A DNA stretch of 64,000 bases from the NCBI GenBank assembly GCA_965250285.1, contig OZ252299.1:672001-736000 (forward strand), given 5' to 3'. Of the stretch, positions 14,828-64,000 are shown one piece after another. The translations under genes and the position numbers were made by a program. Position 1 is the stretch's first letter. The number at the start of each line of letters is the position of its first letter. The notes beneath the pieces are model-generated. The model did not search any database. It saw only the letters and a program-made list of their open reading frames with translations, and was not told where the DNA came from. Origin of the DNA: Myxococcota bacterium. GTDB taxonomy: Bacteria > Myxococcota_A > UBA9160 > UBA4427.

Positions 14828-15724
14828 CTACGGATGATCGAGTGGATCCTCGATCGCGAAGACCAGACGGTAGGCGAAATCCTCTGTGTGCGGTGTCGCC
14901 GCATCGCCGTCTTCGTCGTACCCATCGACACTCAGGACCGCGGCCCCTTCGGTCGCGCCGGTCGCGTACGTGATGCGGGGGAGTCGCCCCGGTCCAGCGT
15001 CGTCATCGCTGGCGAGCTTCTTGTCGGTGTCGTCACGCAGCGTCAGCAGTGCGTCGTTGAACTCGCCGTTCGCATCGTCGTAGAGGCTCGCCGTGACGAC
15101 CGCGCCTTTGATCAGCGGCACCCAGTAGTGGTCGACGTCGCCGGGCGTGAGTGTGCCCGACACCACGACAGCGCCTCGCGGTAGCAGCTGCTTCGGGCGG
15201 ATCAGCTCGTCGCCCGGGTGCGCCCGGTCGTCGTTCTGGCCCGTGTCGTCGCGTTCGGCGAACTCGGGCGCGCGCGTCACGGTGAGGCGGTATTCGAACG
15301 CTTCGCGGTGGCTGCCGTCTCGCTTCTCATCGCCAAAGCCCGTCACGGCGATCGTATGTGTGCCCGTCGTGTCGATCGGCAGTGCGACGCGCGGAGCGAG
15401 GCTGCTTCCGACGTCATCGATCTCGGCGATCGGTTTCTTGTCGTCGTCGGGGCCAAACACGGCGAGGAGCGCGTCGGCGACCTCGCCGCCCGTCTCGTCG
15501 CGCAGGGCCACGGTCACGACGTCGCCGGCGTGCGCCTCGAAGGCGAAATGGTCGACGTCGCTTCGGTCGAGCCACCCCGCGGCGAGCACGGCTTGGTCGA
15601 AGATCGGATGCACCTCGAGGCTCGTGGCCTCGGCGAGCGTATCGTTGGGCTCGCGTTCGCAGACCTGGAAGAGCGCTGTCAGGAGCGTGCCCGAGAGGAT
15701 CAGGAGGAGGGCCGAGAACTTCAT
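14828..15724 (-). CDS. Secreted protein with two PPC-like (pre-peptidase C-terminal) domains
   Basis: Signal peptide; duplicated E.EPND / DVDH[FY] / D.LL.. / DD.G domain; the ATG overlaps the cyclase stop (ATGA). Confidence 0.72.
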   Translation of the reverse strand: MKFSALLLILSGTLLTALFQVCEREPNDTLAEATSLEVHPIFDQAVLAAGWLDRSDVDHFAFEAHAGDVVTVALRDETGGEVADALLAVFGPDDDKKPIAEIDDVGSSLAPRVALPIDTTGTHTIAVTGFGDEKRDGSHREAFEYRLTVTRAPEFAERDDTGQNDDRAHPGDELIRPKQLLPRGAVVVSGTLTPGDVDHYWVPLIKGAVVTASLYDDANGEFNDALLTLRDDTDKKLASDDDAGPGRLPRITYATGATEGAAVLSVDGYDEDGDAATPHTEDFAYRLVFAIEDPLDHP

Positions 15725-18141
15725 ACCGATGTCTCCCTTGAGGCCTGAGCGGCCGGGGTCGCGCGCGGCCGAGCATGGACGTCGATGTCTCCATGCCGTC
15801 CACGGATGGGGACGTCCGAATGGAGCTCGAAGTCGGACATCCATTCGTGAGCGCGTGCATGCGTGGCTTCGTCGACGACGATCGTGGCTTCGAGATCACG
15901 AGACAGGGCCTGCAGGCGGGCGGCCAGGTTCGTCGTGTCGCCGAGCACACCCCAGATCGTGCGGTCGATCGAGCGGATGGGCCCGGCATACGCGCGACCC
16001 GTCGCGATGCCGATCCCCAGATCGACGGGTTCGCTGCCGGGGTCGCCCTCGTCGATGGGCAAGCCGCGCACGTGCGACACGATGTCGTGCGCCGCCTCGA
16101 CGGCCGCGCGTTCCTTGTGCGGGAGCGCGTCGGGCGCGCCGAACACCGCCATCAGACCGTCGCCCTGGAAGTCGACGACCGTCCCCCCGCGTGCGTCGAC
16201 GAGCGCAGAGACGCGCTCGGTGTACCGGCTCACGAGGGTGAAGGTTCGCTCGGGCCCATATCGTTGCGACAGGCGCGTGTAGCCTCGAAGGTCGACGAAG
16301 AGCACGCTCACATCGCATTCACCGGCCGGGATGTCGGCGCGCCGAGCGAGCCGGTCGGCCACGGCCGACGGGACGTAGCCGCGAAGCAGGCGCACCATCT
16401 CGCGCTCTTCGCGGTGTACCTCTTCGAGGTCGAAGCGGCGTAGCTCGTCCGTCACCTTGTCGGCGATGCTCTGCAGCAGCGCGAGCTCGGTCGCGCCGTA
16501 CCGTGCGCCCGACGCCTTCTCCCCCAGACACAGCACGCCTTCGACGAAGTCTTCGCCGAGGATCGGCAGCAGCAGCTCGGCCCCCATCGATTCGAGCGCA
16601 GCCCGGTCGCCCTCGGCGCCGAGCTCGTCGGCCAGCCGCGCCTCGACCGTGCTCATGTCGATCACACGGGGGTCCTCGGTGAGAATGTGAGCGAGGGCGC
16701 CCTCGACCGCGAAGGTCGGTGCGATCGCGTGCCCCCGGTCGTAGAGGGGCGCGAAGACTTCGTTGGCCCGGCCGTACACGACGACGCTCGAGAGCTTCAG
16801 CCGACGCGAGAGGCCGCGCCCGAGGGCTTCGAACAGCTCGCTGGGCTTCTCGCAGTGGGCGAGGTCACGACGCAGGTCGTCGGCGCCGGCTTCGAGGGCT
16901 GCCTGGTCGGGAAACAGTCGCTGTTCGACCCACGGTCGGACGCGACGATGCAGCGCGACGAGCGCGCCCGCGGCCGCGAGGCTGAGCCCCGGGGCGCTCA
17001 CGTCGGGATCGATCCAGGCCGAGCCCGCCTCGGCCAGAGGCGGCACCGCGAGCATCACGCCCGCGAGCAGCACGGCGCCCAGTCCCGAGAGCATCATGGT
17101 CGTCGTGAGCAGGCGGTCGACGTCGAGCAGATGGTCGAGTTCGATCGCCATGAAGACGCCGACGGGGAGCAGCGCGAGCGAGACGAGCGAAATCTCGTAG
17201 AGGCCCGCCCAGTCGGGGCGAGCGAAGGCCGTGGCACCGGCGAAGACGGGCGGGAGCATCGCGAGCAACGCGCCGAGCACGATCCACTTGATCTGGCGTC
17301 GGCCGATGGGGCCGGTCCTGCGCCAGCGGTCGATCAGCACCAGGGAGAGGGTGAGCAGGAATGCCACCGAGGCTCCGACCGCGACCGGCTGGCCGAAGCG
17401 CGCGGGCAGGGGTCCACCGAACGCCCAGGTCATGGCGCCGAGGCCCATCAATGCGAACACCCATGGCAGGCCGCGCGTGCGTCGGGTCGCCCTTCCGATG
17501 TCTTCCGGGAGCGCGAGCACCGCGCGCAGCGACAACGGACCGGCGAGGCCGACGCCGAGGCCGAACGCCACGATCGCGAACGCGTTTCGCACCGGTGCGT
17601 CGCCGCCGAAGAAGTACGACCAGTGCAGGGCATAGGCACCGGCGGTGAGGAAGAAGAGGCGGGCGGCCGGATGCCGCGCGGCCCGGCGATACGCGAGGGC
17701 GCCGGTCGCCAGAAAGGAGAGGGCCAGCAGCGAGCCCCGCCACGCGTGCGGCACCGGCACGGGCGAGATCTCGACCGATGTCGCCGTGCCCGACGCGCCG
17801 CGCATCCGCTCGACCGACACCCGATCGCCATCGGCGTGCGCTGCCGCCGCGTAGAAGTCGAGCGCCGCCGCGAGTCCGCCGCCGCCCGACTGCGACCGGT
17901 CACCGATCCGGACGATGCGATCCCCGCGCCCGATCGCGCGCCGATCGGCCTCGGCCGCATCGGGCCGGACGAACGCCACGCTCGGGTCGCTGCCCTCACT
18001 GGCGTGCGAGAGCGTGAACGGCAGCCAGGCGAGCTGCCCCGTGGCGATGGCATTCAGATGCAGCACGTAGGCGATCGCGCACACGAGGAGCACGCTCCAG
18101 AAGAGCCAGGCGTCGCGCGATGTCCAGCGGGTGCGGCTCAA
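15721..18141 (-). CDS. Membrane class III nucleotidyl cyclase (PDZ-like + multi-TM + GAF + cyclase)
   Basis: VLFVDLRGYT, FQGDGLMAVFG, GIGIATG and GDTTNLAARLQ; PDZ-like GDRIVRIG; GAF LLLPI...GVLCLGEK. TTG start is inferred. Confidence 0.88.
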   Translation of the reverse strand: MSRTRWTSRDAWLFWSVLLVCAIAYVLHLNAIATGQLAWLPFTLSHASEGSDPSVAFVRPDAAEADRRAIGRGDRIVRIGDRSQSGGGGLAAALDFYAAAAHADGDRVSVERMRGASGTATSVEISPVPVPHAWRGSLLALSFLATGALAYRRAARHPAARLFFLTAGAYALHWSYFFGGDAPVRNAFAIVAFGLGVGLAGPLSLRAVLALPEDIGRATRRTRGLPWVFALMGLGAMTWAFGGPLPARFGQPVAVGASVAFLLTLSLVLIDRWRRTGPIGRRQIKWIVLGALLAMLPPVFAGATAFARPDWAGLYEISLVSLALLPVGVFMAIELDHLLDVDRLLTTTMMLSGLGAVLLAGVMLAVPPLAEAGSAWIDPDVSAPGLSLAAAGALVALHRRVRPWVEQRLFPDQAALEAGADDLRRDLAHCEKPSELFEALGRGLSRRLKLSSVVVYGRANEVFAPLYDRGHAIAPTFAVEGALAHILTEDPRVIDMSTVEARLADELGAEGDRAALESMGAELLLPILGEDFVEGVLCLGEKASGARYGATELALLQSIADKVTDELRRFDLEEVHREEREMVRLLRGYVPSAVADRLARRADIPAGECDVSVLFVDLRGYTRLSQRYGPERTFTLVSRYTERVSALVDARGGTVVDFQGDGLMAVFGAPDALPHKERAAVEAAHDIVSHVRGLPIDEGDPGSEPVDLGIGIATGRAYAGPIRSIDRTIWGVLGDTTNLAARLQALSRDLEATIVVDEATHARAHEWMSDFELHSDVPIRGRHGDIDVHARPRATPAAQASRETSV

Positions 18142-18152
18142 ACGGGTTCGCC

Positions 18153-19133
18153 TCAGGGCGCGTCCGCTGACGAGACGATGCGCAGGGTCACCTTCTGTTT
18201 GCGCACGGTGGCCAACGGATCGTCTTCGTCGCTGCGGTCGACGATGTCGACGGTGTCGACGTACTCGAGGAAGGGCACGGCGCCCGCTTCGAGCCCCAGA
18301 TCTTCGATCAGCGCCTCGGTGACCGCGGGTGGCAGCTGCGCCCACTGGATGCGGATGCCTTCGCCTCCGGCACGGCCGCCGCCGCCCCCACCGGTGCCGC
18401 CGCCCCCGCCACCGCCCCCACCGCCGCCCGAGCCTCCGCCCCCGCCTGCGTCGGGGTTCGCGATGCGCGGCTCGACCGCGGGCTCGCGCCAGCCGACGCT
18501 GCCGGGGAGGCCCGTTGGCACGCAGAAGTCGCGACAGTCGATGACCCGCGATGCGTCGATGTAGTCGCCGAGATCCTTGTACGTCTCGGCGTACGTGTAG
18601 CTCTTGCCGTCGACGGTGAACTCGAGGATCAGCGTGAGCGTCGACTTCGAGAAGTCGGCCGGAAGCAGCTCGAGCACGCAGACGCCGTCGGTCTCATCGG
18701 GCGTCTGGCATTCGGCGTCGCTATTGCACGGCTCGCCACGGAACGGTCCGTCGCTGCACTCGTTGTTCTCGACGTGCGGCACGGTCTCGGTGCTGTCGAA
18801 GCCGCCCGAATCTTTGTCGGAGATGATCGTCAGGAAGCCCCGGATCTCGCGCTCGACGAGCTCGGTCGAGCAGGTCGCCGCGGCGCCCGCGGCGCTGCCG
18901 TCGTTGCAGTCGCCATCGTCGACGCAGGTTCGGCCGTCGAGATCCCCGCCCACGCAGAGGCCGAGGCCGATCGCGGCTTGTCGGGCGTTTGGCCCCGGGG
19001 AGGCCGCGTCGGCCATACCCGCGAGGGCGAAGGCGAACGCGACGACCCCGATCGCCGTGAGCTGTGCGTGGATCAGTCGGGTCGTCGGGGGTGAGAAGCG
19101 AGTCGGAGAGAGATGCCATGCGAGCGTTCTCAT
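18153..19133 (-). CDS. Secreted protein with two Cys-rich modules and a poly-Gly tract
   Basis: Signal peptide ending ADA; CVGGDLDGRTCVDDGDC and CSDGPFRGEPCNSDAEC; ATG overlaps the lnt stop; GAAAGGA upstream. Confidence 0.75.
   Translation of the reverse strand: MRTLAWHLSPTRFSPPTTRLIHAQLTAIGVVAFAFALAGMADAASPGPNARQAAIGLGLCVGGDLDGRTCVDDGDCNDGSAAGAAATCSTELVEREIRGFLTIISDKDSGGFDSTETVPHVENNECSDGPFRGEPCNSDAECQTPDETDGVCVLELLPADFSKSTLTLILEFTVDGKSYTYAETYKDLGDYIDASRVIDCRDFCVPTGLPGSVGWREPAVEPRIANPDAGGGGGSGGGGGGGGGGGTGGGGGGRAGGEGIRIQWAQLPPAVTEALIEDLGLEAGAVPFLEYVDTVDIVDRSDEDDPLATVRKQKVTLRIVSSADAP
18375..18446 (-). repeat. Coding GGN low-complexity tract (about 22 Gly)
   Basis: Encodes GGGGGSGGGGGGGGGGGTGGGGGG. 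Confidence 0.85.
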
Positions 19134-48365: not shown

Positions 48366-50570
48366 CTACTTCGGCTCGAGCGCGTCGATGGCCGCGCCGA
48401 CCGGACGCTTGCCCAGCCAGGTGAGCAGCGATTCGACGGCCTGTACGTTCGAGAGTCGACGGCGGGCCTTCGTCGCCTGATCGGCGGCGCCGACGCGGAA
48501 GGTCGCCCCGAGGCCACTCAAGGCGTTGAACGCGTCTTCGTCGGTTTCGTCGTCACCGACGTAGATCGTCCGAAGCTGCTCCGACCACCCGGGCCCGTAG
48601 CACTCGCGCAGCACGTGCAGCACCGCGTGCCCCTTGTCCCACCCGATCGGCGGGCGCGCCTCGACGGCGCAGAGTGCATCTCGGGCCTGGAACCCGGCCG
48701 CACGGATCATCTCGCGCGCCCGCGCGGCCGTGTCTTCTTGCGCCGACGCGTCGGCTTGGCGGAAGTGCAGGGTGAGCGATGCCCCCTTCGCTTCGACCCA
48801 GGCGCCCTGGACGCCGAGCGCATCGAGCTTGTTGGCCAGCTCTCGCGCCCGCTGCGTGTAGTGCTCGATGTCGGGGTGGCGGTAAGGGGGGAGCCCCGGC
48901 CCCTCGATCTCGAGCCCGTGATTGCCTGCGAAGACGAGTCCGTCGATGTCGACGAGGCCGCGCACATCGGAGAGGCCTCGGCCCGAAATGATCGCGACCC
49001 GCGTGTCGGCCCGATCGGCACACGTCTGCAGCGCCGCCTTCATGTGCGATTCGAGCCGGGCCTTCGAGGGATGGCTGGCGATCTCGGCGAGGGTGCCGTC
49101 GTAGTCGAGGAAGAGGAAGAGCGGGCGGGTCTTCAGGAATTCGCCGAGCCATGATTCGAAGTCGGTCGCGCCCACAGGGGCGATGTGCCCGCGCGGCGTC
49201 TGGGCCTTGGCGAGGAACGAGGTCAGCCAGGCGCCCAGATCGTTGCGGCGCTCGCGACGCTGCAGGGCCCGCATCCGCGCCTCGCGCTGATCGGCGGGCA
49301 TCGTGAGCGCCTGGTGCAGCACCTCGGCCACGCTGTCGATGTTGTACGGGTTCACGAGCAGCGACTCGAGCATCGTCTCGGCAGCGCCCGCGAGCCGCGA
49401 GAGCACGAGCACGCCCGGATCGTCGACCTGGCTCGCGACGAACTCTTTCGCCACGAGGTTCATTCCGTCGCGCAGTGGCGTCACGACCGCGACGTCGGCG
49501 TCTCGGTACAGCGCCGAGAGGCGCGCCGCGGGCACCGAACGGTGGAGATAGCGAATCGGGGTCCAGTCGCTCGCGCCGAAGCGTCCGTTCACGCGCCCGA
49601 CCAGCTCGTCGAGCTGTCGCTTGAGGCTCCGATACTCGGAGACCTGCTCTCGAGACGGCACGGCGACCTGGATGAGCTCGACCTGCCCGCGGTGCTCAGG
49701 GTGCAGCTCGAGGAGCCGCTCATAGGCAAGGACCCGTTCGGGAATGCCCTTCGTGTAGTCGAGCCGGTCGACCCCGAGCAGGGTCTGCACGGGGCCTGCG
49801 CCTTTGCGCGTCGCCTCGCGTGCCTGCTCGTCGTAGTGGTCGTAGTCGATGCCGAGCGGAAAGGCCTGCACCGAGACCGTGCGCTCTCCGTGCTCGATCT
49901 GGCCCATCTCGCGGTCGATTCGCTCGCCCAGGAGCCGTTCGACACAATCCATGAAATTCGACACGTAGCCGGGATGGTGGAAGCCGATCAGGTCGCAGGC
50001 CAACATGCCGCGCAGCACCTCGCGACTCCACGGCAGCACGCGAAACAGGTCGAAGGGCGGGAAGGGGATGTGCAGGAAGAAGGCGAGGCGCGCGTTGCGT
50101 CGAAGGGCGCGCAAGTGCTCGGGACAGCGCGTCAGGTGGTAGTCGTGGATCCAGACGAGGTCGTCTTCTTTCATGAGCTCGTGCGCGCGCTGCGCGAAAA
50201 GTGCGTTCACGCGCTCGTAGACGTGCCAGTCCTTGCGGTCGAGCGACGTGCGCTCGAGCAGGGAGTGGAACAGGGGCCACAGCGTCGCATTCGAGAAGCC
50301 GTGGTAGTAGCGCTTGATGTCGACATTCTGCAGCGGAATCGGCTCGAGCGCGTACTCACCGCCCGGCACGGCGAGCTGCTCACCCGGGCGAATCGGGCCG
50401 CCAGGCCAGCCGATCCAGGTGCCTCGGCGACTCTTCATCGCTGGGTCGAGCGCCGCCACGAGTCCCCCACTCGAGCGCTCGACGCGCAGCTCGCCGCGGT
50501 TGCGTTTCAGGGTCACAGGGAGTCGATTCGAGAGGACGAGCAATCGCTGGTCTGTCGCCGCGGCAGCCAT
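48366..50570 (-). CDS. Bifunctional trehalose-6-phosphate synthase/phosphatase (OtsA-OtsB fusion)
   Basis: GT20 motifs SNRLP, WIHDYHL, FFLHIPFP, GVDRLDYTKG and RDGMNLVAKE; HAD motifs FLDYDGTL and GDDETDED. Confidence 0.95.
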   Translation of the reverse strand: MAAAATDQRLLVLSNRLPVTLKRNRGELRVERSSGGLVAALDPAMKSRRGTWIGWPGGPIRPGEQLAVPGGEYALEPIPLQNVDIKRYYHGFSNATLWPLFHSLLERTSLDRKDWHVYERVNALFAQRAHELMKEDDLVWIHDYHLTRCPEHLRALRRNARLAFFLHIPFPPFDLFRVLPWSREVLRGMLACDLIGFHHPGYVSNFMDCVERLLGERIDREMGQIEHGERTVSVQAFPLGIDYDHYDEQAREATRKGAGPVQTLLGVDRLDYTKGIPERVLAYERLLELHPEHRGQVELIQVAVPSREQVSEYRSLKRQLDELVGRVNGRFGASDWTPIRYLHRSVPAARLSALYRDADVAVVTPLRDGMNLVAKEFVASQVDDPGVLVLSRLAGAAETMLESLLVNPYNIDSVAEVLHQALTMPADQREARMRALQRRERRNDLGAWLTSFLAKAQTPRGHIAPVGATDFESWLGEFLKTRPLFLFLDYDGTLAEIASHPSKARLESHMKAALQTCADRADTRVAIISGRGLSDVRGLVDIDGLVFAGNHGLEIEGPGLPPYRHPDIEHYTQRARELANKLDALGVQGAWVEAKGASLTLHFRQADASAQEDTAARAREMIRAAGFQARDALCAVEARPPIGWDKGHAVLHVLRECYGPGWSEQLRTIYVGDDETDEDAFNALSGLGATFRVGAADQATKARRRLSNVQAVESLLTWLGKRPVGAAIDALEPK

Positions 50571-50665
50571 TGCGCGAGCATACCGCGTCGGCGCTGCGTC
50601 GTGGAGCAGGCAGCGAAGCCGCTGCCCACACGATGGGATTGTTTCGAACGGGAGACGAAGTGACG

Positions 50666-52450
50666 ATGAGTGCGCGACCGAATCTCGAGCTGGCCGTGGT
50701 CGGCAACTGCACCTGGGCCGGCCTCGTCGACGAGCGAGCGCGTCTCGTCTGGGGCTGTCTGCCGAGGTTCGATTCCGACCCCGTGTTCTGCTCGCTGCTG
50801 TCGGGCGATGAACCCGACCGCGGCGTGTTCGCCGTCGAGATCGAAGACTTCGAGCGCAGTGAGCAGCGCTACGACGGCAACACCGCGATCGTCGTGACGA
50901 CGCTCTACGACAGTCGAGGCAGCGCCGTCCGCATCACCGACTTCGCGCCCCGCTTCGCGAATCTGGGGCGCATGTACCGGCCGACGATGATGATGCGCCG
51001 GGTCGAGCCGATCGCGGGCGATCCGAAGGTGAGGGTCGTGCTCACGCCGTGTTCGGGGTACGGCGGCGGCGAGCCTGAGACGACCATCGGCTCGAACCAT
51101 ATGCGGTTCATCGGGCCCGATATCACGCTGCGTCTCACGACGGACGCACCTCTTTCGTACGTCATCGACTCGACGCCGTTCCTACTCACGGGCCCCCTGC
51201 ACATGGTGCTCGGCCCGGACGAGACCTTCCCCGGCGACGTCGAGCGCATCGTGCGCGAGTTCGAAGACAAGACCCGCGAGCACTGGACCGAATGGGTGCG
51301 CACGCTCTCGATCCCGTTCGAATGGCAGCGCGAGGTCATTCGAGCCGCGATCACGCTGCAGCTCTGCTTCTTCGAAGACACCGGTGCGATCGTCGCGGCG
51401 CTCACGACGTCGATCCCCGAGGCGCCCGGCAGCGAACGAAACTGGGACTACCGGTTCTGCTGGATCCGCGATGCCTACTTCGTGATCCACGCCCTGAATC
51501 GACTCGGCGCCACGAAGACGATGGAGAGCTACCTCGGCTATCTCTCGAACCTCGTGGCGAGCGTCGACGGCCGATTGCAGCCGGTCTACGGGATCGGTCG
51601 CGAGGCCGAGTTGGTCGAGCGCTTCGCCGAGGGTCTCCCCGGCTATCGGGGCATGGGGCCCGTGCGCGTCGGCAACCAGGCCTACACGCACATCCAGAAC
51701 GACGTGTATGGCTCGGCGGTCCTGGCCGCGACGCAGATCTTCTTCGATGAGCGGCTGCTGAGGAGCGGGGGCGACCGCCTCTTCGAGCTGCTCGAAGCGC
51801 TCGGTTCACACGCCGTCGCCCTTGCGGCCGAGCCGGATGCCGGCCTGTGGGAGCTTCGGAACCGAGCGAGCGTGCATACGTTCTCGGCCGTGATGTGCTG
51901 GGCTGCGTGCGACCGACTGTCTCGGATCGCCGTGCGGCTCGGCCGCAGTGATCGCGGCCGGCACTGGCGCGAAGAGGCCGATCGGATCCGCGCTGTCATC
52001 GACGAGAAGGCGATGACGAAGGAGGGGGCGTACGCAGCGACGTTCGGAGGCGACGAGACGGATGCTTCGCTTCTGCTGCTCGAGTCGCTCGGGTTCGTCG
52101 ACGCGGCGGACTCTCGATTTCGCGAAACGCTCGCCCAGGTCGAACGAGATCTGCGGCGTGGTTCGTACCTGTACCGGTACGCCGTGGCGGACGACTTCGG
52201 CGTGCCGGAGGTCGCCTTCAACGTCTGCACGTTCTGGTACGTCGATGCCCTGGCCGCGAGTGGTCGCGTGGACGAAGCGCGCGAGCTCTTCGAGAACATG
52301 CTCTCGAAATGCAACTCGGTGGGGCTGCTGTCGGAAGACCTCCAGGTCGAATCGGGGGAGCTCTGGGGGAACTTTCCACAGACCTACTCGATGGTCGGGC
52401 TCATCAACTCGGCGATGCGCCTATCGCGGAGTTGGGAGGAGGCGTTCTGA
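50666..52450 (+). CDS. Glycoside hydrolase family 15 (trehalase/glucoamylase-like)
   Basis: AALTTSIPE, RNWDYRFCWIRD, PVRVGN, GLWELR, GLLSE and GNFPQ..S. Confidence 0.93.
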   Translation: MSARPNLELAVVGNCTWAGLVDERARLVWGCLPRFDSDPVFCSLLSGDEPDRGVFAVEIEDFERSEQRYDGNTAIVVTTLYDSRGSAVRITDFAPRFANLGRMYRPTMMMRRVEPIAGDPKVRVVLTPCSGYGGGEPETTIGSNHMRFIGPDITLRLTTDAPLSYVIDSTPFLLTGPLHMVLGPDETFPGDVERIVREFEDKTREHWTEWVRTLSIPFEWQREVIRAAITLQLCFFEDTGAIVAALTTSIPEAPGSERNWDYRFCWIRDAYFVIHALNRLGATKTMESYLGYLSNLVASVDGRLQPVYGIGREAELVERFAEGLPGYRGMGPVRVGNQAYTHIQNDVYGSAVLAATQIFFDERLLRSGGDRLFELLEALGSHAVALAAEPDAGLWELRNRASVHTFSAVMCWAACDRLSRIAVRLGRSDRGRHWREEADRIRAVIDEKAMTKEGAYAATFGGDETDASLLLLESLGFVDAADSRFRETLAQVERDLRRGSYLYRYAVADDFGVPEVAFNVCTFWYVDALAASGRVDEARELFENMLSKCNSVGLLSEDLQVESGELWGNFPQTYSMVGLINSAMRLSRSWEEAF

Positions 52451-55434: not shown

Positions 55435-56514
55435 ATGTTCGGGGCGCCGCGCGCGTCAGCTCGGATCGCGTTGATCGTGGCGTTGTCGTTCTCCGTGGGC
55501 TGCGGCGCGAACAGCCTGGCCGATCGAGGTGACGCCTACGTCGAGGCGGTCGCGAACGCGATCGGAGTGGCGCCGCCGACGATCGCGCCGCCGAAGCGCT
55601 CGACCGCGCTGCCCCGCCGGCGGGTGCGCCGCCTCGAGCCAACGGATCATCGCATCGGCATCCTCGATTTTCTCTCGATTCAGGGCTGTGAGCTCGGCGT
55701 GCTCGCGGCCGTGAAGACCAGCGCCATGGGTCGTCAGATGCCGTACTCGATGCGCCTCACCCACGAACTTGCCGTGCTCGAAGTGAGCGACGCGTGCATC
55801 GCCGAGCTCGACGACGAGGAGCTGCAGCTCGAACTCGAATCGATCGTGGCGTCGAAGCGCGCCGAACGCGGCGTGCACGTCTGGAACGCGCTCTGGGCGG
55901 GCGACGAGATCGAGGCGTATCTGACCCCGACGCCGAGAGTCGCGCTGGAGTCGTCGTCGGGCGACGGCGCGATGTCGGCGCTCGATCGGCTACGGATCGG
56001 TGTCGAAGGGATGCGCGAGCGCGAGGCCGATGGACGAGCCGTCGAAGACGCACTGACTCGACTCATGCGCGCGCGCTCGTTGGGGCGTGCGCTTCGCGAT
56101 CTCGACGTCGCCTCTGCCCGGCTCGATGCCGCGAGTGAGATGGTGTCGTCGGTCGACAGCGAAGCGTGCGGTCCCGTGCAGGCTCGACTCGTGGATGCAT
56201 TCAAGAGCACGTACCTCCAGTTCGTGCAGCAGCCGCTCGGCTTCGCCCACCGTCGCGTCGCCGACGAGCTGCCCGGCCTTCACGCGCTCGTGCTCATGTC
56301 GATGGACGCGCTCGACGCGGCGGGTCGACCCACGCCCGCCCCGATGCGCGTGTGGTTCGAGACCGTGCTCGACCCCGATGCGCCCGACGCGGTCTGGCCG
56401 ACCTACCAGGGCGCGCTTCGACGCCATGTCGCGGCCTGGGCGCCGGTGCTGAGCGTGTGTGGTGAGCTTGCGACGTCGAGCGCGGCCGATTCCGCCGATC
56501 GGGAGCCTCGGTGA
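55435..56514 (+). CDS. DUF3080-like lipoprotein
   Basis: Lipobox SVGC; IGILDFL...CELGVLAA..TSAMGR resembles DUF3080. Confidence 0.65.
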   Translation: MFGAPRASARIALIVALSFSVGCGANSLADRGDAYVEAVANAIGVAPPTIAPPKRSTALPRRRVRRLEPTDHRIGILDFLSIQGCELGVLAAVKTSAMGRQMPYSMRLTHELAVLEVSDACIAELDDEELQLELESIVASKRAERGVHVWNALWAGDEIEAYLTPTPRVALESSSGDGAMSALDRLRIGVEGMREREADGRAVEDALTRLMRARSLGRALRDLDVASARLDAASEMVSSVDSEACGPVQARLVDAFKSTYLQFVQQPLGFAHRRVADELPGLHALVLMSMDALDAAGRPTPAPMRVWFETVLDPDAPDAVWPTYQGALRRHVAAWAPVLSVCGELATSSAADSADREPR

Positions 56515-56693
56515 ATCGGAGCGCGATCGTTCGGTGAACCGGGCATCTCCGACACCGCGGTACCAACGGCCATGACGAATCGTATGCAGGCGCCGCGCAG
56601 GCGGCGCCGCGTGTCTGGATGCCGACGATCACGCCGTCAAGTGTCGTCTGGTTATCACCCGGTGCGACGACGAATCGAGTAGAATCGGGGATC

Positions 56694-59600
56694 GTGGAGA
56701 GCACGAACGCCCCGCTGCGAGTCCGGAGCACGGCCCCCCTCGTCAATCGACAGCGCGAGTTCGCCTGGCTGACGGCGCACTGCGATGCCGCGGAGCGGGG
56801 TGTGCCCGGCGTGTGCCTGCTGCATGGGGACGCGGGGATCGGCAAGTCGCGTCTCGTTCGTGAGTTGGCCGCGCGTTCGCACGGGCGGTCGGCGCACGTC
56901 GGCATCGGTCGGGGGCACGAGTATCTCTCCGCACCCTATCTGCCGCTCGCCGAAGCCCTTCGCGAAGGGCCGGCCGCGGCCGCCGGGGCGCTGCTTCGGC
57001 CCGACCGGGTGTCTGCACCGAATCGCGCGGAGCGCGATGGCGAAGAAGAGCACGCGCGGGTGCAGCTCTTCACCTCGGTGGCCGCTGCGCTGATCGATGC
57101 CGCGGCCGAGCAACCGCTCGTGATCGTGCTCGAAGATCTGCACTGGGCCGACCCCTCGACGCTCGACCTGCTCGGGCATCTCGTGTTCGCTGCGGCCGAT
57201 GCGTCGGGCCTGCGCCCGGTCCATCTGCTCCTCGTGCTCACGTACCGCAGCAGCGAGCTGAGTGAGCGCTTGCGTCCCGGTCTGTCTCGAATCGCGCGCG
57301 AAGCCGTGAGCGAGAGCCTCGAGCTCGAAGGGCTCGACCAGGGGGACACCTCGCGACTGGTGGAGGCCCACGGCGTCGGGGTCGCTTCTCACCAGCTGGT
57401 CTCGGCCATTCAACGCGCGACCGAGGGCAATCCACTCTTCGTGGGCGAAGTGCTGCGCGAACTGGTGGCGGACGGTGGGGTGCAGCAGGTCGAGCGGTAT
57501 GCCGCGGTCACGCGCGAGCCCCAACTCCAGCTTCCCGCAGACGTGTCGAGCGCGATCTCGCGGCGGCTCACGACGCAGTCGTCCGAAGTGCGGCGAATGC
57601 TCGAACGCGCCGCCGTGATCGGCGAGTTGGTCGACGAGGCGTTGCTGCGGGCCACGGCGTCCGAAGAAGAGGGGGTGCTCGAGTCGGCGCTGCGCGAGGC
57701 GATCGACACGGGTTTTCTCGAGCGCGACGGGCGCACCTTGCGGTTCCAGCACGGGTTGCAGCGACGCGTCGTGCTCGAAGAGGCGGCCGCCGATCGCGTC
57801 GAGAAGCTGCATCGTCTGGTGGCCGAAGAGCTCGAATCTCGTCCGGTCGGCCACGATGATCCAGGGTTGGGCGTGGCGATCGCCGAGCATCTGTTTCGGG
57901 CGGGCACGCTGGCCCCTGTCGAGCAGCGCGTGCGTGCAGCGCGCCGCGCCGCCGACGACGCGGCGCGTGTCTTCGCGTGGGGCGAATCGGGTCGCTGGTA
58001 CGCCGCGGCCGCCGATGCGGCGCGCGGGATCCTCTCCGAGACCGAGGTGGCCGATCTCGACTACTCGGCGGGCCTCTCCTTCAACCACGACTGGGATGCC
58101 GGCCCGTGCCTCGCGCACTACGACCGTGCGCACGAGGCGTACGCACGGCGCCAGGATGCGCCCGGCATTGCACGCACGTTGAATCATCGTCTTCGCGCCA
58201 CGTTCACGTTCGGCGGGGCGTCCTACGGTGAGTCACTCGACCTCGAGCCGCTTCGCGAGGCCGTGGCTTCGCTCGGCGAGGGGGCGCCGGTCTTGCGAGG
58301 GATGGCCATGGCCACTCTCGCCGAGGCGCACTGGACGGCCCGCGAGACCGAAGCGTCGGTTCGGATGGCCGAGGCGGCGCTCGAGCTCGGCCGGCGTGAA
58401 GGCGACGCGCACTTGTCGCGCAATGCCAGCGTCGCGCTCGGTCTCGCTCGCGTGCAGCAGATGGACCTCGCGGGGGCCGTGCAGGCCTTTCTGGCCTCGC
58501 GCAGTCACGCCCGAACCGCGCGGGACCCCTGGCTGGCCATCGCGCCGATGGTGCGTGCGACGACGGCGCAGATTCAGCTGGGTCGGATCGCCGAGGCCGT
58601 CGCGGTCGGCGCCGAAGCACTCGCTGAAGGGCGTCGTATGCACGACGTGGCCGAGACCTCGATGTCGCTGTGCGATCACGCTCTACTCGCCGTGCTGCGG
58701 GGTCGCTTCAGTGAGGCCGAAGCCGTGGTGCGCGAGGCGATGATGCTGTCGTATCGCGCGCAGTACCCGTGGAGCGGCGTGCTCGGCCTCGCGACGCTCG
58801 CGGCTGCGCGGTGGCTGCGCGGGGAGACACTCGAGGCGGAGGACGCGCTGTCGGCGCTCGCCGAGCCCGGAGGCGCCTTCGAGGATCCGAGCCCGGCGAT
58901 CCTGATTCTGGTCGAGGTCTATCGCACGCTGCTGCGTCTCGGGCACAGGAGCATCGACGATGACGAGCGGGCTCGTCTCGGCGGACTGGCTCGCGCACTC
59001 GGCCTCGTCGGCCCCGACGCGAACGCGATCGGACCCCACTGCGCGATGGTCGAGATCGCCGCGTACTACCGGCTGCCGGAGCTCGTCGAGGTCGCGCGCC
59101 CGTTCCTCGAGCTGGCGGTCGAGCGCGGCGTCGTCTTCAGCAGCGGCTGGCCTTTCAGCGTCGAGCGTTCTCTGGCGCTCGCCGAGCGCCTCGTCGGGGA
59201 CGACGCGGGGGCCGAGCGTCATCTACGCCACGCCGCTTCGGAGATGGATCGCCTCGATGCGCGCCCCGAGCTCGGACGCAGTCTGGTCTCGCTGGCCGGT
59301 CTGTTGCTCGACCGTGGCGATGACGCGGGTCGGGCCGAGGCGCAGGTTCTGTGCGATCGCGCGCTCGCGCTGTTCGAATCGCTCGCGATGCCGACGCTCG
59401 CTGAAGAGGTGCTCGTGCTCGCGAAGGACGCCGAGCTCGACGTCTCGCCCGCTCCGTCGGCGCCGCGCTCGCCCGCGATCGATGCCGGGGACGTCGCGCG
59501 TCGAATGGCTCGCGGCGAAGACTTGAGCCGCATTGCCGGCAGCCTCATCCTGAGCCCGCGCTCGGCCAACGAGCATCTGCTTCGGGCGTTCACACCGCGG

Positions 59601-60179
59601 CCCGAGTCGGCGCGTGGCTTCACGCCGGCGGGGGTGCTCGCGAAGCTCGACGACACCGCGGCGGTCTCGCCCCGGGTGCTGACGATTCTGATCACCGACA
59701 TCGTCGGCTTTACTCCCCTGATCCACGGCCTGGGCGACGAGGTTGGGCACGCCGTCATCAAGGCGCACAACCGCATCGTGCGGGAGTGCTTGACGCGCCG
59801 AGACGGCGTCGAAGTGGCCCACACGGGCGATGGCTTGATGGTGTCGTTCGAGGCGCCTTCGAACGCGCTGCGCTGTGCGACCGAGATCCACCGCGCGTTC
59901 GCGGCGTATACCGCCGAGCACCCGGAGGCGCCCGTGCGCGTGCGCATTGGCATCCACCTGGGAGAAACGCGATCCGAAGAGCATCGTCTCTTCGGCACCG
60001 CGGTGAACATGGCCGCCCGCGTCTGCGCCTGCGCCGAAGCAGAAGAGATCATCGTGTCGAAGGCCGTGCGTGACGTCAACGAAGAACGCACTCGACGATT
60101 CGAGTCACGCGGAGAGGTCGAGCTGAAGGGCCTGCCCGGCCGCTACGAGCTCTTCGAGATGAAGTGGCGCAGCGATTGA
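56694..60179 (+). CDS. STAND-type AAA ATPase + TPR + degenerate LuxR-like HTH + C-terminal class III cyclase
   Basis: Walker A GDAGIGKS; Walker B VLEDLHWAD; TEGNPLFV; long helical repeats; cyclase ITDIVGFT, TGDG, RIGIHLG and VNMAARV. Start uncertain (56619-56694). Confidence 0.9.
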   Translation: MESTNAPLRVRSTAPLVNRQREFAWLTAHCDAAERGVPGVCLLHGDAGIGKSRLVRELAARSHGRSAHVGIGRGHEYLSAPYLPLAEALREGPAAAAGALLRPDRVSAPNRAERDGEEEHARVQLFTSVAAALIDAAAEQPLVIVLEDLHWADPSTLDLLGHLVFAAADASGLRPVHLLLVLTYRSSELSERLRPGLSRIAREAVSESLELEGLDQGDTSRLVEAHGVGVASHQLVSAIQRATEGNPLFVGEVLRELVADGGVQQVERYAAVTREPQLQLPADVSSAISRRLTTQSSEVRRMLERAAVIGELVDEALLRATASEEEGVLESALREAIDTGFLERDGRTLRFQHGLQRRVVLEEAAADRVEKLHRLVAEELESRPVGHDDPGLGVAIAEHLFRAGTLAPVEQRVRAARRAADDAARVFAWGESGRWYAAAADAARGILSETEVADLDYSAGLSFNHDWDAGPCLAHYDRAHEAYARRQDAPGIARTLNHRLRATFTFGGASYGESLDLEPLREAVASLGEGAPVLRGMAMATLAEAHWTARETEASVRMAEAALELGRREGDAHLSRNASVALGLARVQQMDLAGAVQAFLASRSHARTARDPWLAIAPMVRATTAQIQLGRIAEAVAVGAEALAEGRRMHDVAETSMSLCDHALLAVLRGRFSEAEAVVREAMMLSYRAQYPWSGVLGLATLAAARWLRGETLEAEDALSALAEPGGAFEDPSPAILILVEVYRTLLRLGHRSIDDDERARLGGLARALGLVGPDANAIGPHCAMVEIAAYYRLPELVEVARPFLELAVERGVVFSSGWPFSVERSLALAERLVGDDAGAERHLRHAASEMDRLDARPELGRSLVSLAGLLLDRGDDAGRAEAQVLCDRALALFESLAMPTLAEEVLVLAKDAELDVSPAPSAPRSPAIDAGDVARRMARGEDLSRIAGSLILSPRSANEHLLRAFTPRPESARGFTPAGVLAKLDDTAAVSPRVLTILITDIVGFTPLIHGLGDEVGHAVIKAHNRIVRECLTRRDGVEVAHTGDGLMVSFEAPSNALRCATEIHRAFAAYTAEHPEAPVRVRIGIHLGETRSEEHRLFGTAVNMAARVCACAEAEEIIVSKAVRDVNEERTRRFESRGEVELKGLPGRYELFEMKWRSD

Positions 60180-60209
60180 TGCAGCGAGAAACGATGCAGA
60201 GGAGAGTTC

Positions 60210-61007
60210 ATGCCGACCGGAATGCCTGGCAACACCATGCGCGGACACGTGATCAAGCAGATCGAGCGGGTGATCAACAACTGTGGCGAAGACGCGCTCA
60301 AGATCCTGATCGAGGATTTGAGCACGCAGAAACAACCGATGGTCAAGATCCTGACCAACACGTACGGGGGGCAACGCGCTCTCGATCCGAGTAAGGAGAT
60401 CGACAAGTTCAACAAGCGGCACCTGCGAGTCGACTGGTTCGGTCGCCACCGAAAGCGCGACCCGAAAGACAAGGACAAGAAGATACCGGTGCCTCCCCAG
60501 GACTGGCGGGGGCGCTGGTGGCGAGGCACGACGCGGCGCACGGGGTATCAGCCGATCGATCCGATCGTCCGATTGGGGCTATGGACGACCTGCAAGCTCA
60601 AGCTGAAGCTCCAGGGTGAGAGCGAAGACGCGGTGCCCATTCATATGGTCTGGATATGCGCCGGCCACCACTTCGAGGTCCACTCGCTGCCGCAGTACCT
60701 GGTGGACTCTGACGGCAAGCGAGGGGCTGCTCACGGCATCTCCGTCCTCATCGTGACGCCGCATGAGGGTCTACCCCTCGAAGACGCCGGGATGTCCGAG
60801 GTCGGTTCCGACGTCAGTGCCGACATCGACGACGAGATCTACATCGTCCGCGGAACCCTCGTCGAGGACGACGAATCGAGAGCGGGATACGCGAGAATCG
60901 AGAAGTGGGAGGGGAGCGACGCAGTCCCCACCTACTACGACGATGCGGTTACGAAGCTTCCCCCCGCAGCGCTCTACAACCCGTTGAAGCAGCAGGATCC
61001 GTTCTAG
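60210..61007 (+). CDS. Hypothetical cytoplasmic protein, paralogue A
   Basis: GAGGAG RBS; 30 nt after the STAND-cyclase stop; coding status supported by protein-level conservation with the convergent paralogue. Confidence 0.85.
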   Translation: MPTGMPGNTMRGHVIKQIERVINNCGEDALKILIEDLSTQKQPMVKILTNTYGGQRALDPSKEIDKFNKRHLRVDWFGRHRKRDPKDKDKKIPVPPQDWRGRWWRGTTRRTGYQPIDPIVRLGLWTTCKLKLKLQGESEDAVPIHMVWICAGHHFEVHSLPQYLVDSDGKRGAAHGISVLIVTPHEGLPLEDAGMSEVGSDVSADIDDEIYIVRGTLVEDDESRAGYARIEKWEGSDAVPTYYDDAVTKLPPAALYNPLKQQDPF

Positions 61008-61011
61008 TCGG

Positions 61012-61758
61012 TCAGTCGATGGGGTCCGAGACCAGCGGGTTGTAGATTTCCGCGTCGTAGGCGGGCACGTTCACGCCTTCGACGTGTGGGGCGGCCTTGT
61101 ACCCGACGGCCTCAGGATCGGCGAGCTTCTGGCGGACGATCCAGATCGATTCGTCGACGTCGGGCCCGACCTCGACACCCGTCTCGGACATGCCCGCATC
61201 TTCGACGGGCATGCCTTCGTGGGGCGTGACGATGATCGTCGTGAGCGAGTGGACGACCTCCTTCTCACCCCCACTGCCGTCGTCGACCATCGTCTTCTGA
61301 CGGACGATGTGCGTTTCGAAGTGGTGGCCGGCACAGATCCACAACACTTGCACCGGCACCTTCTCGCTCTGCAGGCTCTCGTAGTGCCTTTTCAGGACGC
61401 ACGTCGTCCAGAAGCCCATCCGGACGACGGGATCGATGGGCTGATAGCCCGGTCGGCGGGTCGTGCCGCGCCACCAGCGTCCGCGCCAGTCCTTCGGGTC
61501 GATCGCGTCCCCGTTCGACCTCTTGTGCCGGCCGAACCAGTCGATGCGGAGGTGGCGAATGTTCCACTTGTCGGGGTCCTTGGTCTTGTCCAAGGCTCGC
61601 TGCCCGCCGTACAGATCCCTGAGGATGCGGATCATCGGCTTGCTCTGGTTGGACAGGTCGCCGATGAGCCCATCGATGTCGGTGGTCTTGTTGATCACGC
61701 GCTCGATCTGCTGGATCGCAAACCCGCGCATCGTGTTGCCAGGCATTCCGGTGGGCAT
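61012..61758 (-). CDS. Hypothetical cytoplasmic protein, paralogue B
   Basis: AAGGAG RBS; same N-terminus (MPTGMPGNTMRG) and shared motifs with 60210-61007. Confidence 0.85.
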   Translation of the reverse strand: MPTGMPGNTMRGFAIQQIERVINKTTDIDGLIGDLSNQSKPMIRILRDLYGGQRALDKTKDPDKWNIRHLRIDWFGRHKRSNGDAIDPKDWRGRWWRGTTRRPGYQPIDPVVRMGFWTTCVLKRHYESLQSEKVPVQVLWICAGHHFETHIVRQKTMVDDGSGGEKEVVHSLTTIIVTPHEGMPVEDAGMSETGVEVGPDVDESIWIVRQKLADPEAVGYKAAPHVEGVNVPAYDAEIYNPLVSDPID

Positions 61759-62071
61759 GAGAACTCCTTCGTCTGCTTCAGCGCGGGCATCCGGACTCAG
61801 CGTCGGAGACCCGTTCGAGTGCATGGCGTAGCAATCGCGACACCGAGGCGATGTCACACCCGATACATATCATGTGAGTGCGCACGGGCTGATGAAATCT
61901 GCTGTGCGTAGGCAAGTGAGAACGCGCGCGAGCCGATGGCGTCGGGGGTTTCCGCCACACCCGCCCGCGAGTCTGCCGTGCTCGCGAATGCGAGTCGGGT
62001 GCGCAGGGTTGGGTCGCGAGTTGCCGGTCGCGTCGAGGCGAGCCGAGCCCGCGCGTCGGGTCGAACCCCGC

Positions 62072-63652
62072 TCAGCTCCGCGTCGAGGCCGCGCGCGCCC
62101 TGCGCCAACCGAGGGCGCCGAGGGACGCGGCGACGATGGCACCCGCGGCGGGCACCAGCATGGGCACGCTCGGCGTCGACGTGATGCTCGTGATGAAGAT
62201 GTCGTTCTGACCGTTCGATGTGAACAATGCGGTGCCGTCGCCCGGGTCGAAGTCGACATTGGCCCCCGAGAAGTCGCCCACCAGGTGAGGTCGATCGCTC
62301 GGGTCGACCGTGATCGAGTAGCCGAACGAGTCGGCGGTCGAAGGCGCCTCGTAGATGTCGAGCGATTCGAAGACGCCCGTGTTGGAGTAGCGCGCAATGA
62401 AGGCGTCGAAGGGGAAGGGCGGCATCTCGGCCGCGCCCGGGCCGGGGTCGAGGTCGACCGTGCCGAAGGTCTGGCCCGTCAGCAGCAGGGCCCCCGTGCT
62501 GTCGACGACCAGATCGGTACCGGTGTCGTCACCGGTGTCGCCTGCGGCGAACGCGAATCGAACGCCGCCAACGGAGTCGTAGCTTGCGACGAAGAGGTCG
62601 CGGTTGGCCACGGCCGTGAGCTCGAGCAGACCGACCGCCGGATCGAAGTCGGCAGTGCCGAGAAAGAAGCCCGTGATGAAGGCCTGACCAGCGTCATCGA
62701 CGTCGACGCTGCGGGCCTCGTCGCGTTGGGTTCCGCCCATGCGGACGGCGTACCGATACGCCCCCGAGCTCGTGTAGCTCGCCAGGAACGCGTCCTCCTG
62801 TCCGGCCGACGTCAGAGTTGCCACCAAAGGACCTGGATCGAAGTCGGCGCTCTCTCGGAAGAAGCCCGTCACGTATACGTTGTCCGCGTCGTCCAGGGCA
62901 ACGCCCCAGGCGTTGTCACCTGCGGTGCCACCGAGGGCGAAGGCGAAACGCACCTCACCGTCGTTCGAGTAGCTCGCCAGGAACGCGTCCGTGTTGCCTT
63001 CGCTCTCGACGATCAGCTCGTCGACTTCGTCCGGGTCGAAGTCGGCTTCGCCCGGGAAGAGGCCGGCGACATAGACGTTGCCGATGCTGTCGACCGCGAT
63101 GTCGCGGCCGGCCTCGAGCACACTCAGCTCGTCGCCCCCGATCTGAAACGCGAAGCGGTATGCGCCGGTTGGGCCGTAGCTCGCCACGAAGGTGTTGCCA
63201 TCGGTGCCGACCAGAGAGACGAGATCGGGGCCGGGGTCGAAGTCGCCGACGCCGGTGAACCAACCGGTCACGAACACGTTGCCGGCCGCATCGAACGCGA
63301 CGCCGCGCTCATTCACGAGACCGCCGCCGGGTCCGAGCGGCACGACGAAGCGCAGCGCGCCGGCCGGGGTGTAGCTCGCGACGTAGTTCGTGAAGCTCGA
63401 GACCGACGTCAGCTCGGTCACGCCGGGGCCGGGATCGAAGTCGACGGTACCCCGAAACTGACCGGCGATGGCGACGTTGCCCGCCGCATCGATGGCGATC
63501 GCGCGCCCTGTGTCTGACTGAGTCCCGCCGATCTGATACGCGAGCTGGGCGCGCGCCGGCGCGGCGTCCAGGAGGAACGCAAGCGCGGCCACGACGAAGA
63601 TCAAGTGCGCGCGGGGCAGGGTGAATCCGGCAGAAGGCGAGCGAAAGGGCAT
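62072..63652 (-). CDS. Secreted seven-bladed beta-propeller (SBBP-like) protein with IPTL-CTERM-like anchor
   Basis: Signal peptide ending ARA; seven repeats with D..GN.Y..G.F and D[FL]DP; C-terminal VPML + TM + WRRAR. Confidence 0.82.
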   Translation of the reverse strand: MPFRSPSAGFTLPRAHLIFVVAALAFLLDAAPARAQLAYQIGGTQSDTGRAIAIDAAGNVAIAGQFRGTVDFDPGPGVTELTSVSSFTNYVASYTPAGALRFVVPLGPGGGLVNERGVAFDAAGNVFVTGWFTGVGDFDPGPDLVSLVGTDGNTFVASYGPTGAYRFAFQIGGDELSVLEAGRDIAVDSIGNVYVAGLFPGEADFDPDEVDELIVESEGNTDAFLASYSNDGEVRFAFALGGTAGDNAWGVALDDADNVYVTGFFRESADFDPGPLVATLTSAGQEDAFLASYTSSGAYRYAVRMGGTQRDEARSVDVDDAGQAFITGFFLGTADFDPAVGLLELTAVANRDLFVASYDSVGGVRFAFAAGDTGDDTGTDLVVDSTGALLLTGQTFGTVDLDPGPGAAEMPPFPFDAFIARYSNTGVFESLDIYEAPSTADSFGYSITVDPSDRPHLVGDFSGANVDFDPGDGTALFTSNGQNDIFITSITSTPSVPMLVPAAGAIVAASLGALGWRRARAASTRS

Positions 63653-64000
63653 GGGACGCGAGCTCCGTTCGAGAATGAGTGCTTCGAGCCAGCCTACGCG
63701 AGCAGGCTGGGCCTGTACAGCATTCGGTGTCGGCCGACGCGAAGCGCGCCGGAGCGCGCGAGCCCGTGTGGCGGGCTCGCTTCTTCTAGACACCACGCGC
63801 TCGGTCAGCGTGTCTCGGCCTCGAGTCGAGGCGTCGGCGGTCCGCTTTCGGCCGACCGCTCGATCCCTCCGAGCGGATGCGCGGCCAGGGCGGTTCGCGT
63901 TCGATCGTTGGGAGCGTGCGTTTCGCCGGTGCCGCCGTTTGATCGGGGCTGCGGCGGTCTTGCTCGTCGTCGAAGGCGCCCGACGAACGGGCACGACCCG

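Follow-up and report, generated by a model that had tools for sequence, protein, structure and literature searches.

A STAND-TPR protein with a C-terminal class IIIc cyclase, an Ala/Arg base-specificity pair and a linked partner gene in a Myxococcota bacterium

Which nucleotide does a class III cyclase use when both residues that select adenine have been replaced, and what switches such an enzyme on? This question is raised by a gene in a 64,000-nucleotide stretch of DNA from a Myxococcota bacterium (assembly GCA_965250285.1, contig OZ252299.1, positions 672,001 to 736,000; hereafter the window). Its product, P0001, combines a signal transduction ATPase with numerous domains (STAND), tetratricopeptide repeats (TPR), the remnant of a LuxR helix-turn-helix (HTH) and a class IIIc nucleotidyl cyclase. 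The open reading frame extends from 56619 to 60179 on the forward strand and encodes 1186 amino acids; position 56694, where the first-pass annotation had begun the gene, is not the 5' end of the frame but an alternative in-frame GTG start, 25 codons in. Together with a small gene directly downstream, P0001 forms, in our assessment, an uncharacterised two-gene signalling module of the MalT/SWACOS kind. As a whole, we propose with somewhat less than even confidence that P0001 is a STAND-TPR switch whose intact cyclase likely makes cGMP upon oligomerisation, and that the small neighbour protein probably controls this switch.

Pfam assigned AAA_16 to residues 41-189 (E = 7e-25) and Guanylate_cyc to residues 1021-1177 (E = 6e-16), together with a weak TPR_12 match. 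An AlphaFold model based on a 96-row alignment (mean predicted local distance difference test, pLDDT, 91.8) consisted of a nucleotide-binding domain (NBD), helical and winged-helix domains, a helical solenoid at about residues 391-937, three short helices (956-990) and finally the cyclase. The top Foldseek match of this model was the STAND-TPR structure 6mfv, followed by Ma1120 (TM to target 0.94) and Rv1900c. The order AAA-TPR-HTH-like-cyclase proposed in the first-pass annotation was confirmed. The nucleotide-binding oligomerisation domain (NOD; residues 41-390, 56739..57788, +) contains the Walker A sequence GDAGIGKS (56826-56849), the Walker B residues E172/D173, R210, GxP at 270-272 and the winged-helix residues F376/H378, the motif names being those of the STAND literature. 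The arm and TPR-like solenoid follow (residues 391-937, 57789..59429, +), with family-specific conserved residues such as W454, D493, R646, R713, Y716, W718, E812, R850 and E884. P0001 has the features of STAND NTPases of the MalT/SWACOS type: a P-loop NBD with Walker A/B and GxP, the winged-helix His and, behind them, a repeat sensor; the motifs are conserved. The cyclase domain occupies residues 1018-1183 (59670..60167, +).

All catalytic residues were found in this domain: D1027, D1071, R1109, N1130, R1134 and K1170, with codons at 59697, 59829, 59943, 60006, 60018 and 60126 (+), respectively. P0001 therefore has the fold, the two metal-binding Asp residues (D1027, D1071) and the transition-state Asn/Arg pair (N1130, R1134) of class III cyclases, and the Asp residues and N..R pair had correctly been called intact before. 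Alignment with Ma1120 (4wp9), whose sites were numbered according to PMC4215837, placed EVAHTGDG on VVKSQGDG and EHRLFG on GDDLFG, so that A1067 corresponds to K101 and R1123 to D157. Base-specificity site 1, Lys in adenylyl cyclases and Glu in most guanylyl cyclases, is Ala1067 (59817..59819, +); site 2, Asp in adenylyl cyclases and Lys in PucC, is Arg1123 (59985..59987, +). The earlier claim that Ala and Arg replace the adenine-selecting Lys and Asp thus holds, as it is Ala and Arg that this alignment puts at the specificity positions. P0001 departs from the canonical adenylyl cyclase pattern (Lys with Asp/Thr) and also lacks the canonical guanylyl cyclase pair of a site 1 Glu and a site 2 Cys/Ser/Gly (PMC4215837, PMC7384201). 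The domains of Ma1120 and LipJ/Rv1900c (4wp9, 5d0g, 1ybt) are about 40% identical to that of P0001, with TM values to target of 0.91-0.95 and the same catalytic core; P0001 differs by Ala/Arg in place of K101/D157 and by its fusion to a STAND.

A sequencing error as origin of Ala/Arg was excluded by an orthologue fragment and by identical public contigs. The fragment, 79% identical to P0001, contains the same EVAHTGDG with Ala at site 1, and contigs from three runs of one study, possibly of the same source DNA, showed neither letter differences nor indels across 56500-62100. A search of 40 related genomes, among them an 83% complete one from the same genus, found no orthologue of P0001 (best match 41%). 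Word-based homologue searches were insensitive, recovering a single true orthologue of P0001 and few partners, and the matches listed on scanning genome and metagenome contigs for patterns were mostly generic AAA_16 proteins.

Many full-length relatives emerged from a HMMER search of 1.84 billion representatives. Among the best 150, which were analysed, 96 carry a C-terminal cyclase, one an N-terminal cyclase and 53 none. What the first-pass annotation had handled as a one-off case is instead a large family in which Arg at site 2 combined with various site 1 residues (X/Arg) recurs. D1027 is conserved in 95/96 cyclase-bearing relatives, D1071 in 96/96, R1134 in 94/96 and N1130 in 46/96, and Arg occupies site 2 in 51/96. 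In the 95 rows covering both sites, a basic residue occurs at site 1 only in 31, at site 2 only in 55, at both in none and at neither in 9. Wherever site 2 is acidic, site 1 is basic (25/25). The commonest site 1/site 2 pairs are Q/R (25), K/D (20), T/R (15) and A/R (5). On a FastTree phylogeny of the STAND part, 13 changes of each trait were counted; of 8-9 independent pairs, 5.5-5.7 go in the same direction and none in the opposite one (median p 0.03). The pattern extended to 229 distinct class IIIc domains, although some low-scoring rows of this set are possibly misaligned: 76 have a basic site 2, none of them with a basic site 1, and at least 19 state changes are required. Lys at site 2 goes with Asp/Glu at site 1 in 15/15 cases, and Arg at site 2 is accompanied by Gln (28), Thr (16), Ala (6), Asp (5), Glu (3), Ser (2) or Val (1). 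Co-varying with Arg1123 are E1065 (50/51), R1055 (51/51) and E1121 (39/51), and the aromatic residue at position 1025, two residues before the first metal Asp, is lost with it, from Phe/Tyr in 19/25 to mostly Val in the Arg group. Because the basic residue stands at one site or the other, never at both, and because other residues co-vary with it, the alignments indicate that Ala/Arg is a maintained alternative pocket and not decay.

Two further groups of cyclases were observed. A stand-alone SCO4226-like (nickel-binding) domain is fused to a Q/R cyclase with the metal Asp residues and transition-state Arg (D/D/R) intact (L096:5770-6600 and L097:5767-6609); hence, the X/Arg pocket occurs outside STANDs too. 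A separate clade of long cyclase proteins from related genomes (L002, L003, L004, L005, L006, L187, L272, L273), mostly STAND fusions of about 1500 amino acids, has E/K, E/R or D/K pairs nested among K/D kin, a PucC-like swap of independent origin; no partner gene was found beside this clade at the loci checked.

Alternatively, the cyclase could be dead or decaying alongside the HTH, the domain only binding nucleotide or dimerising. The HTH is indeed truncated, and frameshifted or remnant copies occur in three genomes: a STAND in G282 (L210:8114-11488), a partner in G080 (L205:10772-11329) and a partner remnant in G333 (L257:3880-4107), which are assembly errors or ongoing loss. Every catalytic residue of P0001 is nevertheless present, D/D/R is intact in 74/76 basic-site-2 domains despite only about 35-50% identity, and the orthologue fragment retains the site 1 Ala. 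We therefore regard a dead enzyme as very improbable, and the active cyclase assumed in the first pass gains support from these alignments.

Which product would such a pocket yield? The cyclase PucC of the Pucsar system makes cGMP and carries E118 (second Asp minus 4) and K195 at the specificity sites (preprint bioRxiv 10.64898/2026.08.12.744502). Arg1123 of P0001 shares with K195 the basic character of site 2; GTP is therefore our best guess. The other Pucsar traits are absent: PucC has Glu at site 1 and is a stand-alone, Pycsar-related enzyme beside effectors combining a cyclic nucleotide-binding domain with TIR (CNBD-TIR) or having three transmembrane segments, whereas P0001 has Ala1067, is a STAND fusion and has no gene for a protein binding cyclic nucleotide monophosphates (cNMP) in the window. 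Arg1123 would face purine position 6, donating to guanine O6 and disfavouring adenine N6. Ala1067 would leave N1/N2 unread, and the GTP preference may therefore be loose. Judged jointly, a GTP-preferring enzyme has in our estimate about an even chance, ATP or mixed use a distinctly smaller one, a pyrimidine product a slight one and inactivity the slightest.

The proposed activation follows MalT and PH0952. P0001 would rest as a monomer with ADP bound until a trigger acting on the TPR sensor opens the NOD and leads to multimerisation, by analogy with the inducer-triggered ADP/ATP exchange and multimerisation described for this STAND type (PMC6468293). Multimerisation would pair the cyclase domains, whose shared active sites need a dimer.

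Several observations weigh against the GTP reading. In RhGC the contact of Glu with N1/N2 was argued to be the main GTP determinant (PMC7384201), and P0001 has Ala at this position. Site 2 changes in Ma1120 lowered its adenylyl cyclase activity 3-6-fold with no guanylyl cyclase activity gained, and a KDA-to-EGY mutant reached only equal use of ATP and GTP (PMC4215837); Ma1120 is the closest solved relative and resists conversion, which makes the two-residue rule a weak one for class IIIc. The base contacts of PucC are derived from a model, and PucC belongs to another clade (preprint 10.64898/2026.08.12.744502). Activity data for any X/Arg enzyme were not found in the literature searched. Finally, the occurrence of a single basic residue fits equally well a plain Lys-to-Arg compensation.

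In that case, Arg1123 would stand in for the lost Lys and extend to adenine N1 across the space created by the K-to-A and F-to-I/V changes, and P0001 would be an adenylyl or dual ATP/GTP cyclase, comparable to other class IIIc enzymes with odd specificity residues. The presence of exactly one basic residue in 86/95 rows and the shift from Phe/Tyr to Val described above are consistent with this, as is the best NCBIfam match of P0001, a partial match to the LipJ adenylate cyclase far under the cut-off. A carboxylate facing adenine N1 is chemically unfavourable. Asp/Glu at site 1 in 23/76 basic-site-2 domains, including all 15 with Lys, is accordingly difficult to reconcile with an adenine pocket. 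Ma1120 mutants retain ATP use (PMC4215837), and a mycobacterial Gln/Asn enzyme has both adenylyl and guanylyl cyclase activity (bioRxiv 2024.03.06.583649), but the E/K pair of PucC belongs to a cGMP maker (preprint 10.64898/2026.08.12.744502). On balance, we consider such a compensation rather unlikely.

The first-pass annotation had proposed cGMP or a cyclic pyrimidine as product; the former is favoured by analogy with E118/K195 of PucC, the latter is not. For a pyrimidine, the long Arg would narrow the pocket and cUMP or cCMP would be made in a Pycsar-like manner. Uracil N3-H/O4 and guanine N1-H/O6 share the same donor-acceptor order, which fits such a product. Weak PADLOC matches of PycC to the cyclase domain (E 1e-7) point in the same direction, and PycC clades differ in their residue sets, F100/R142/Q144 in EaPycC with Y50/D94/R97 as an alternative set (PMC11224242). 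P0001 shares with PycC (Bc, Ea, An) the class III fold and the two catalytic Asp residues. When mapped by offset from the catalytic Asp (D102/D146, EaPycC numbering), F100/R142/Q144 nevertheless correspond to I1025/A1067/T1069, so these pyrimidine determinants are missing. The structure resembles Ma1120 and LipJ with no PycC among the Foldseek matches listed, and no adjacent cNMP receptor exists: no cNMP-binding gene lies in the window and none was noticed at the partner loci read. A pyrimidine product is thus improbable.

The strongest contextual feature of the locus, a conserved gene downstream, had been overlooked in the first pass. P0245 (265 amino acids; 60210..61007, +) starts 30 nt past the STAND stop codon with AGGAGAG upstream. 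A second copy, P0244 (248 amino acids; 61012..61758, -), is convergent to it and 52% identical. The partner family is about 200 amino acids in length and divergent (median identity 23%), with a G+C content of 61-64% as compared to 70%. His71, Trp148 and Thr183-Pro are near-invariant, His71 being kept in 47 of 48 covering rows and Trp148 in 53 of 55, and two partner subfamilies matched each other by profile (probability 96.2, E 2e-9). The structural model showed a confident helical-plus-sheet core at about residues 6-187 and low confidence for residues 188-265. The partner matched nothing in Pfam, NCBIfam, PADLOC, PHROGs, PDB sequences or the Atlas, and a single query found no homologue on plasmids. 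Foldseek gave no match of the model at E<=0.001, although poor or absent matches are no proof of a new fold; the best VIA match had Z 4.9 and a root-mean-square deviation of 3.9 over 113 aligned residues. When the partner was modelled in complex with STAND residues 305-945, outside the NBD and without controls, the score was 0.00, to which we attach no weight either way, and a promoter/terminator scan gave a signal at chance level only.

Distant homologues of the partner occupy the same position beside family STANDs of other genomes. A partner profile found 24 matches in 22 of 225 genomes of the window's class. Without the window's two copies and five seed genomes, 17 matches remained: 12 directly downstream of a family STAND-TPR gene, one tail-to-tail with one (13/17 beside a family STAND), two tail-to-tail with membrane-type cyclases without STAND, one alone and one at a contig end. 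In 301 genomes of the Dehalococcoidia class five matches were obtained, and three of the four new ones flank a family STAND, the fourth lying at a contig end. In 400 genomes of the Acidimicrobiia class, with one genome (G1046) excluded from all counts, 23 genomes gave 24 matches, of which 17 lie downstream of a family TPR gene, five are tail-to-tail with weaker TPR genes and two are neither. Conversely, a partner stands beside 22/30 STANDs with a family TPR score >200 and beside 0/14 scoring <170; the eight without comprise two contig ends, one remnant, two paralogues beside a partnered STAND and three others. By these sequence neighbourhoods, the partnered STAND family spans three phyla, occurring in Myxococcota, Dehalococcoidia and Acidimicrobiia.

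The strength of this linkage has to be reduced on several counts. The 22/30 figure is partly circular because some loci were found via the partner, only G324, G465 and G442 having been found blind from the STAND side. Related loci are not independent owing to kinship, and there are genuine exceptions, namely the two partners beside membrane-type cyclases (genomes G343 and G031), the one alone and three family STANDs partnerless within intact flanks. The correlation of STAND and partner distances (r 0.45, n=23; about 0.29, n=18, with one genus thinned) was equal for NTPase and TPR parts and confounded by kinship, and was not used.

The outputs of partnered STANDs vary, i.e. an OmpR-type winged helix-turn-helix (wHTH), a Ser/Thr kinase, LuxR alone or cyclases with K/D, Q/R, A/R, E/K, A/D or E/G pairs, at either the C- or the N-terminal end. 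Linkage is thus independent of the output domain, and the partner therefore probably acts on the switch or sensor and not on the cyclic nucleotide. As a cyclase is lacking in many partnered STANDs, we rejected a role of the partner as general cNMP receptor. Since the partner tracks the STAND-TPR part, it would work on the input side as an inhibitor, a chaperone or a source of inducer. MalY, a known enzyme, offers a precedent. It is a separate protein that holds MalT inactive by blocking its oligomerisation (PMC10427625), and by this analogy the partner may be an inhibitor; the near-invariant His makes it possible that it is instead an enzyme making the inducer. The dedicated neighbour of P0001 differs from MalY in having neither a Pfam family nor a solved fold match.

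Additional partner loci were noted. Two divergent pairs of family STAND-TPR genes (L206:9484-16035, L207:8397-14934) have a partner after just one of each, and in genus g50 small genes with a repeated QYCLRLP motif adjoin STANDs of this type. In G239 a TPR-only frame of the family follows the partner gene (L209:6008-7354). In Acidimicrobiia, more distant TPR genes have divergent partner-like genes in tail-to-tail position (L302, L305, L306, L307, L309), three of which apparently lack the His. Two partner matches (L314, L315) are weak and have no TPR neighbour; by eye, L314 resembles an unrelated HIT-type protein.

The module could alternatively serve defence, as an NLR-like anti-phage or conflict system in which the TPR detects a protein of the invader and the partner serves as guardee, decoy or effector. 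The partner is patchily spread (22/225, 5/301 and 23/400 genomes), its divergence and lower G+C content would suit such a role, an orthologue of P0001 was found in 0/40 relatives, and an immune clade of STAND-fused cNMP cyclases has been predicted. The outputs, however, are regulatory, and those examined include no nuclease, TIR or Sir2; the neighbours are metabolic or transport genes (in the window trehalose, amine oxidase, EamA and DUF3080 genes); PADLOC reported no STAND-system match, and PHROGs none for 28 partner proteins. Signalling is therefore favoured, and defence appears unlikely.

The relic HTH bears on the origin of this signalling module. Residues 956-990 (59484..59588, +) matched positions 10-38 of a 58-position LuxR profile, whose first and last parts remained unmatched, with 15.2 bits as compared to 7.9 bits for the best of 1000 shuffles. 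The profile, made from 11 relatives of which six are within the 96 cyclase-bearing rows, gave 47 strong and 11 weak matches among these 96, and none in 38. Pfam GerE did not match P0001; it matched 24/28 of the closest cyclase-bearing relatives scanned and scored higher still in existing STAND-TPR-LuxR relatives without cyclase. Judged by the profile score, the HTH of P0001 is a genuine truncated relic. Since GerE occurs in most close relatives and cyclase-less kin exist, P0001 apparently derives from a MalT/LuxR-type regulator, as had been suggested together with decay of its HTH. The complete C-terminal LuxR HTH of LAL/MalT proteins is lacking in P0001, where the HTH is partial and followed by the cyclase; it would no longer bind DNA and would act as a linker.

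SWACOS proteins are STANDs with an adenylyl cyclase or a Ser/Thr kinase, and in the mycobacterial Rv0386 group the cyclase is N-terminal. MalT/LAL-type regulators, PH0952 (PDB 6mfv) and SWACOS resemble P0001 in their AAA_16 NOD, arm, TPR sensor and LuxR HTH after the sensor, and kinase, wHTH and cyclase variants are also found among them; P0001 differs in its truncated HTH with a cyclase after it. SWACOS are named in PMC7159879, PMC13581612 and PMC13236601. STAND-cyclase-LuxR combinations are already known from Rv0386/Rv2488c/Rv1358, which have the same four domain types and a class IIIc cyclase with non-canonical specificity residues, a Gln/Asn pair (bioRxiv 2024.03.06.583649), whereas P0001 has a C-terminal cyclase, Ala/Arg and a partner gene. 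Neither the C-terminal HTH-cyclase family nor the X/Arg pocket nor the partner turned out to be described in a full-text literature search, whose coverage did not extend to most subscription journals and supplements.

The number of known bacterial guanylyl cyclases is small, and such enzymes are predicted by the rule of Lys/Asp as opposed to Glu/Cys. Many annotated adenylate cyclases would make cGMP if X/Arg means GTP; as K/D, Q/R, T/R, A/R, E/K and E/R are natural variants on one scaffold, the rule is directly testable. A partner tied to one sensor family in three phyla offers a handle on the on/off control of non-immune bacterial STANDs, few of which have a known trigger. A bolder view, which we regard as doubtful, combines two ideas. 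X/Arg, with Gln, Thr, Ala, Ser, Asp or Glu at site 1 beside the site 2 Arg, would be a third class III specificity code that evolved repeatedly and marks a large unrecognised set of bacterial guanylyl cyclases. At the same time, the partner would have a new fold and use its near-invariant His to make or present an inducer for the whole STAND-TPR family, one input being plugged into transcription, phosphorylation, or cAMP versus cGMP.

The genome encodes six class III cyclases, four of them within 687-763 kb, and six cNMP-binding proteins. Site 1 is Asp/Glu (VVDFQGDG, VVEFQGDG) in membrane-type class III cyclases of about 800-990 amino acids, which makes them candidate guanylyl cyclases; they are found in the window at 15724-18693 (-) and at G000:C1:743680-746055, L237:8811-11219 and L238:8972-11398. 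At 48366-52450 (-) of the window lie adjacent genes which by eye encode a trehalose-6-phosphate synthase/phosphatase and a glycoside hydrolase 15. The gene at 62072-63994 (-) encodes an SBBP beta-propeller protein with a signal-like N-terminus and, by eye, a hydrophobic-plus-basic C-terminal tail resembling a sorting signal.

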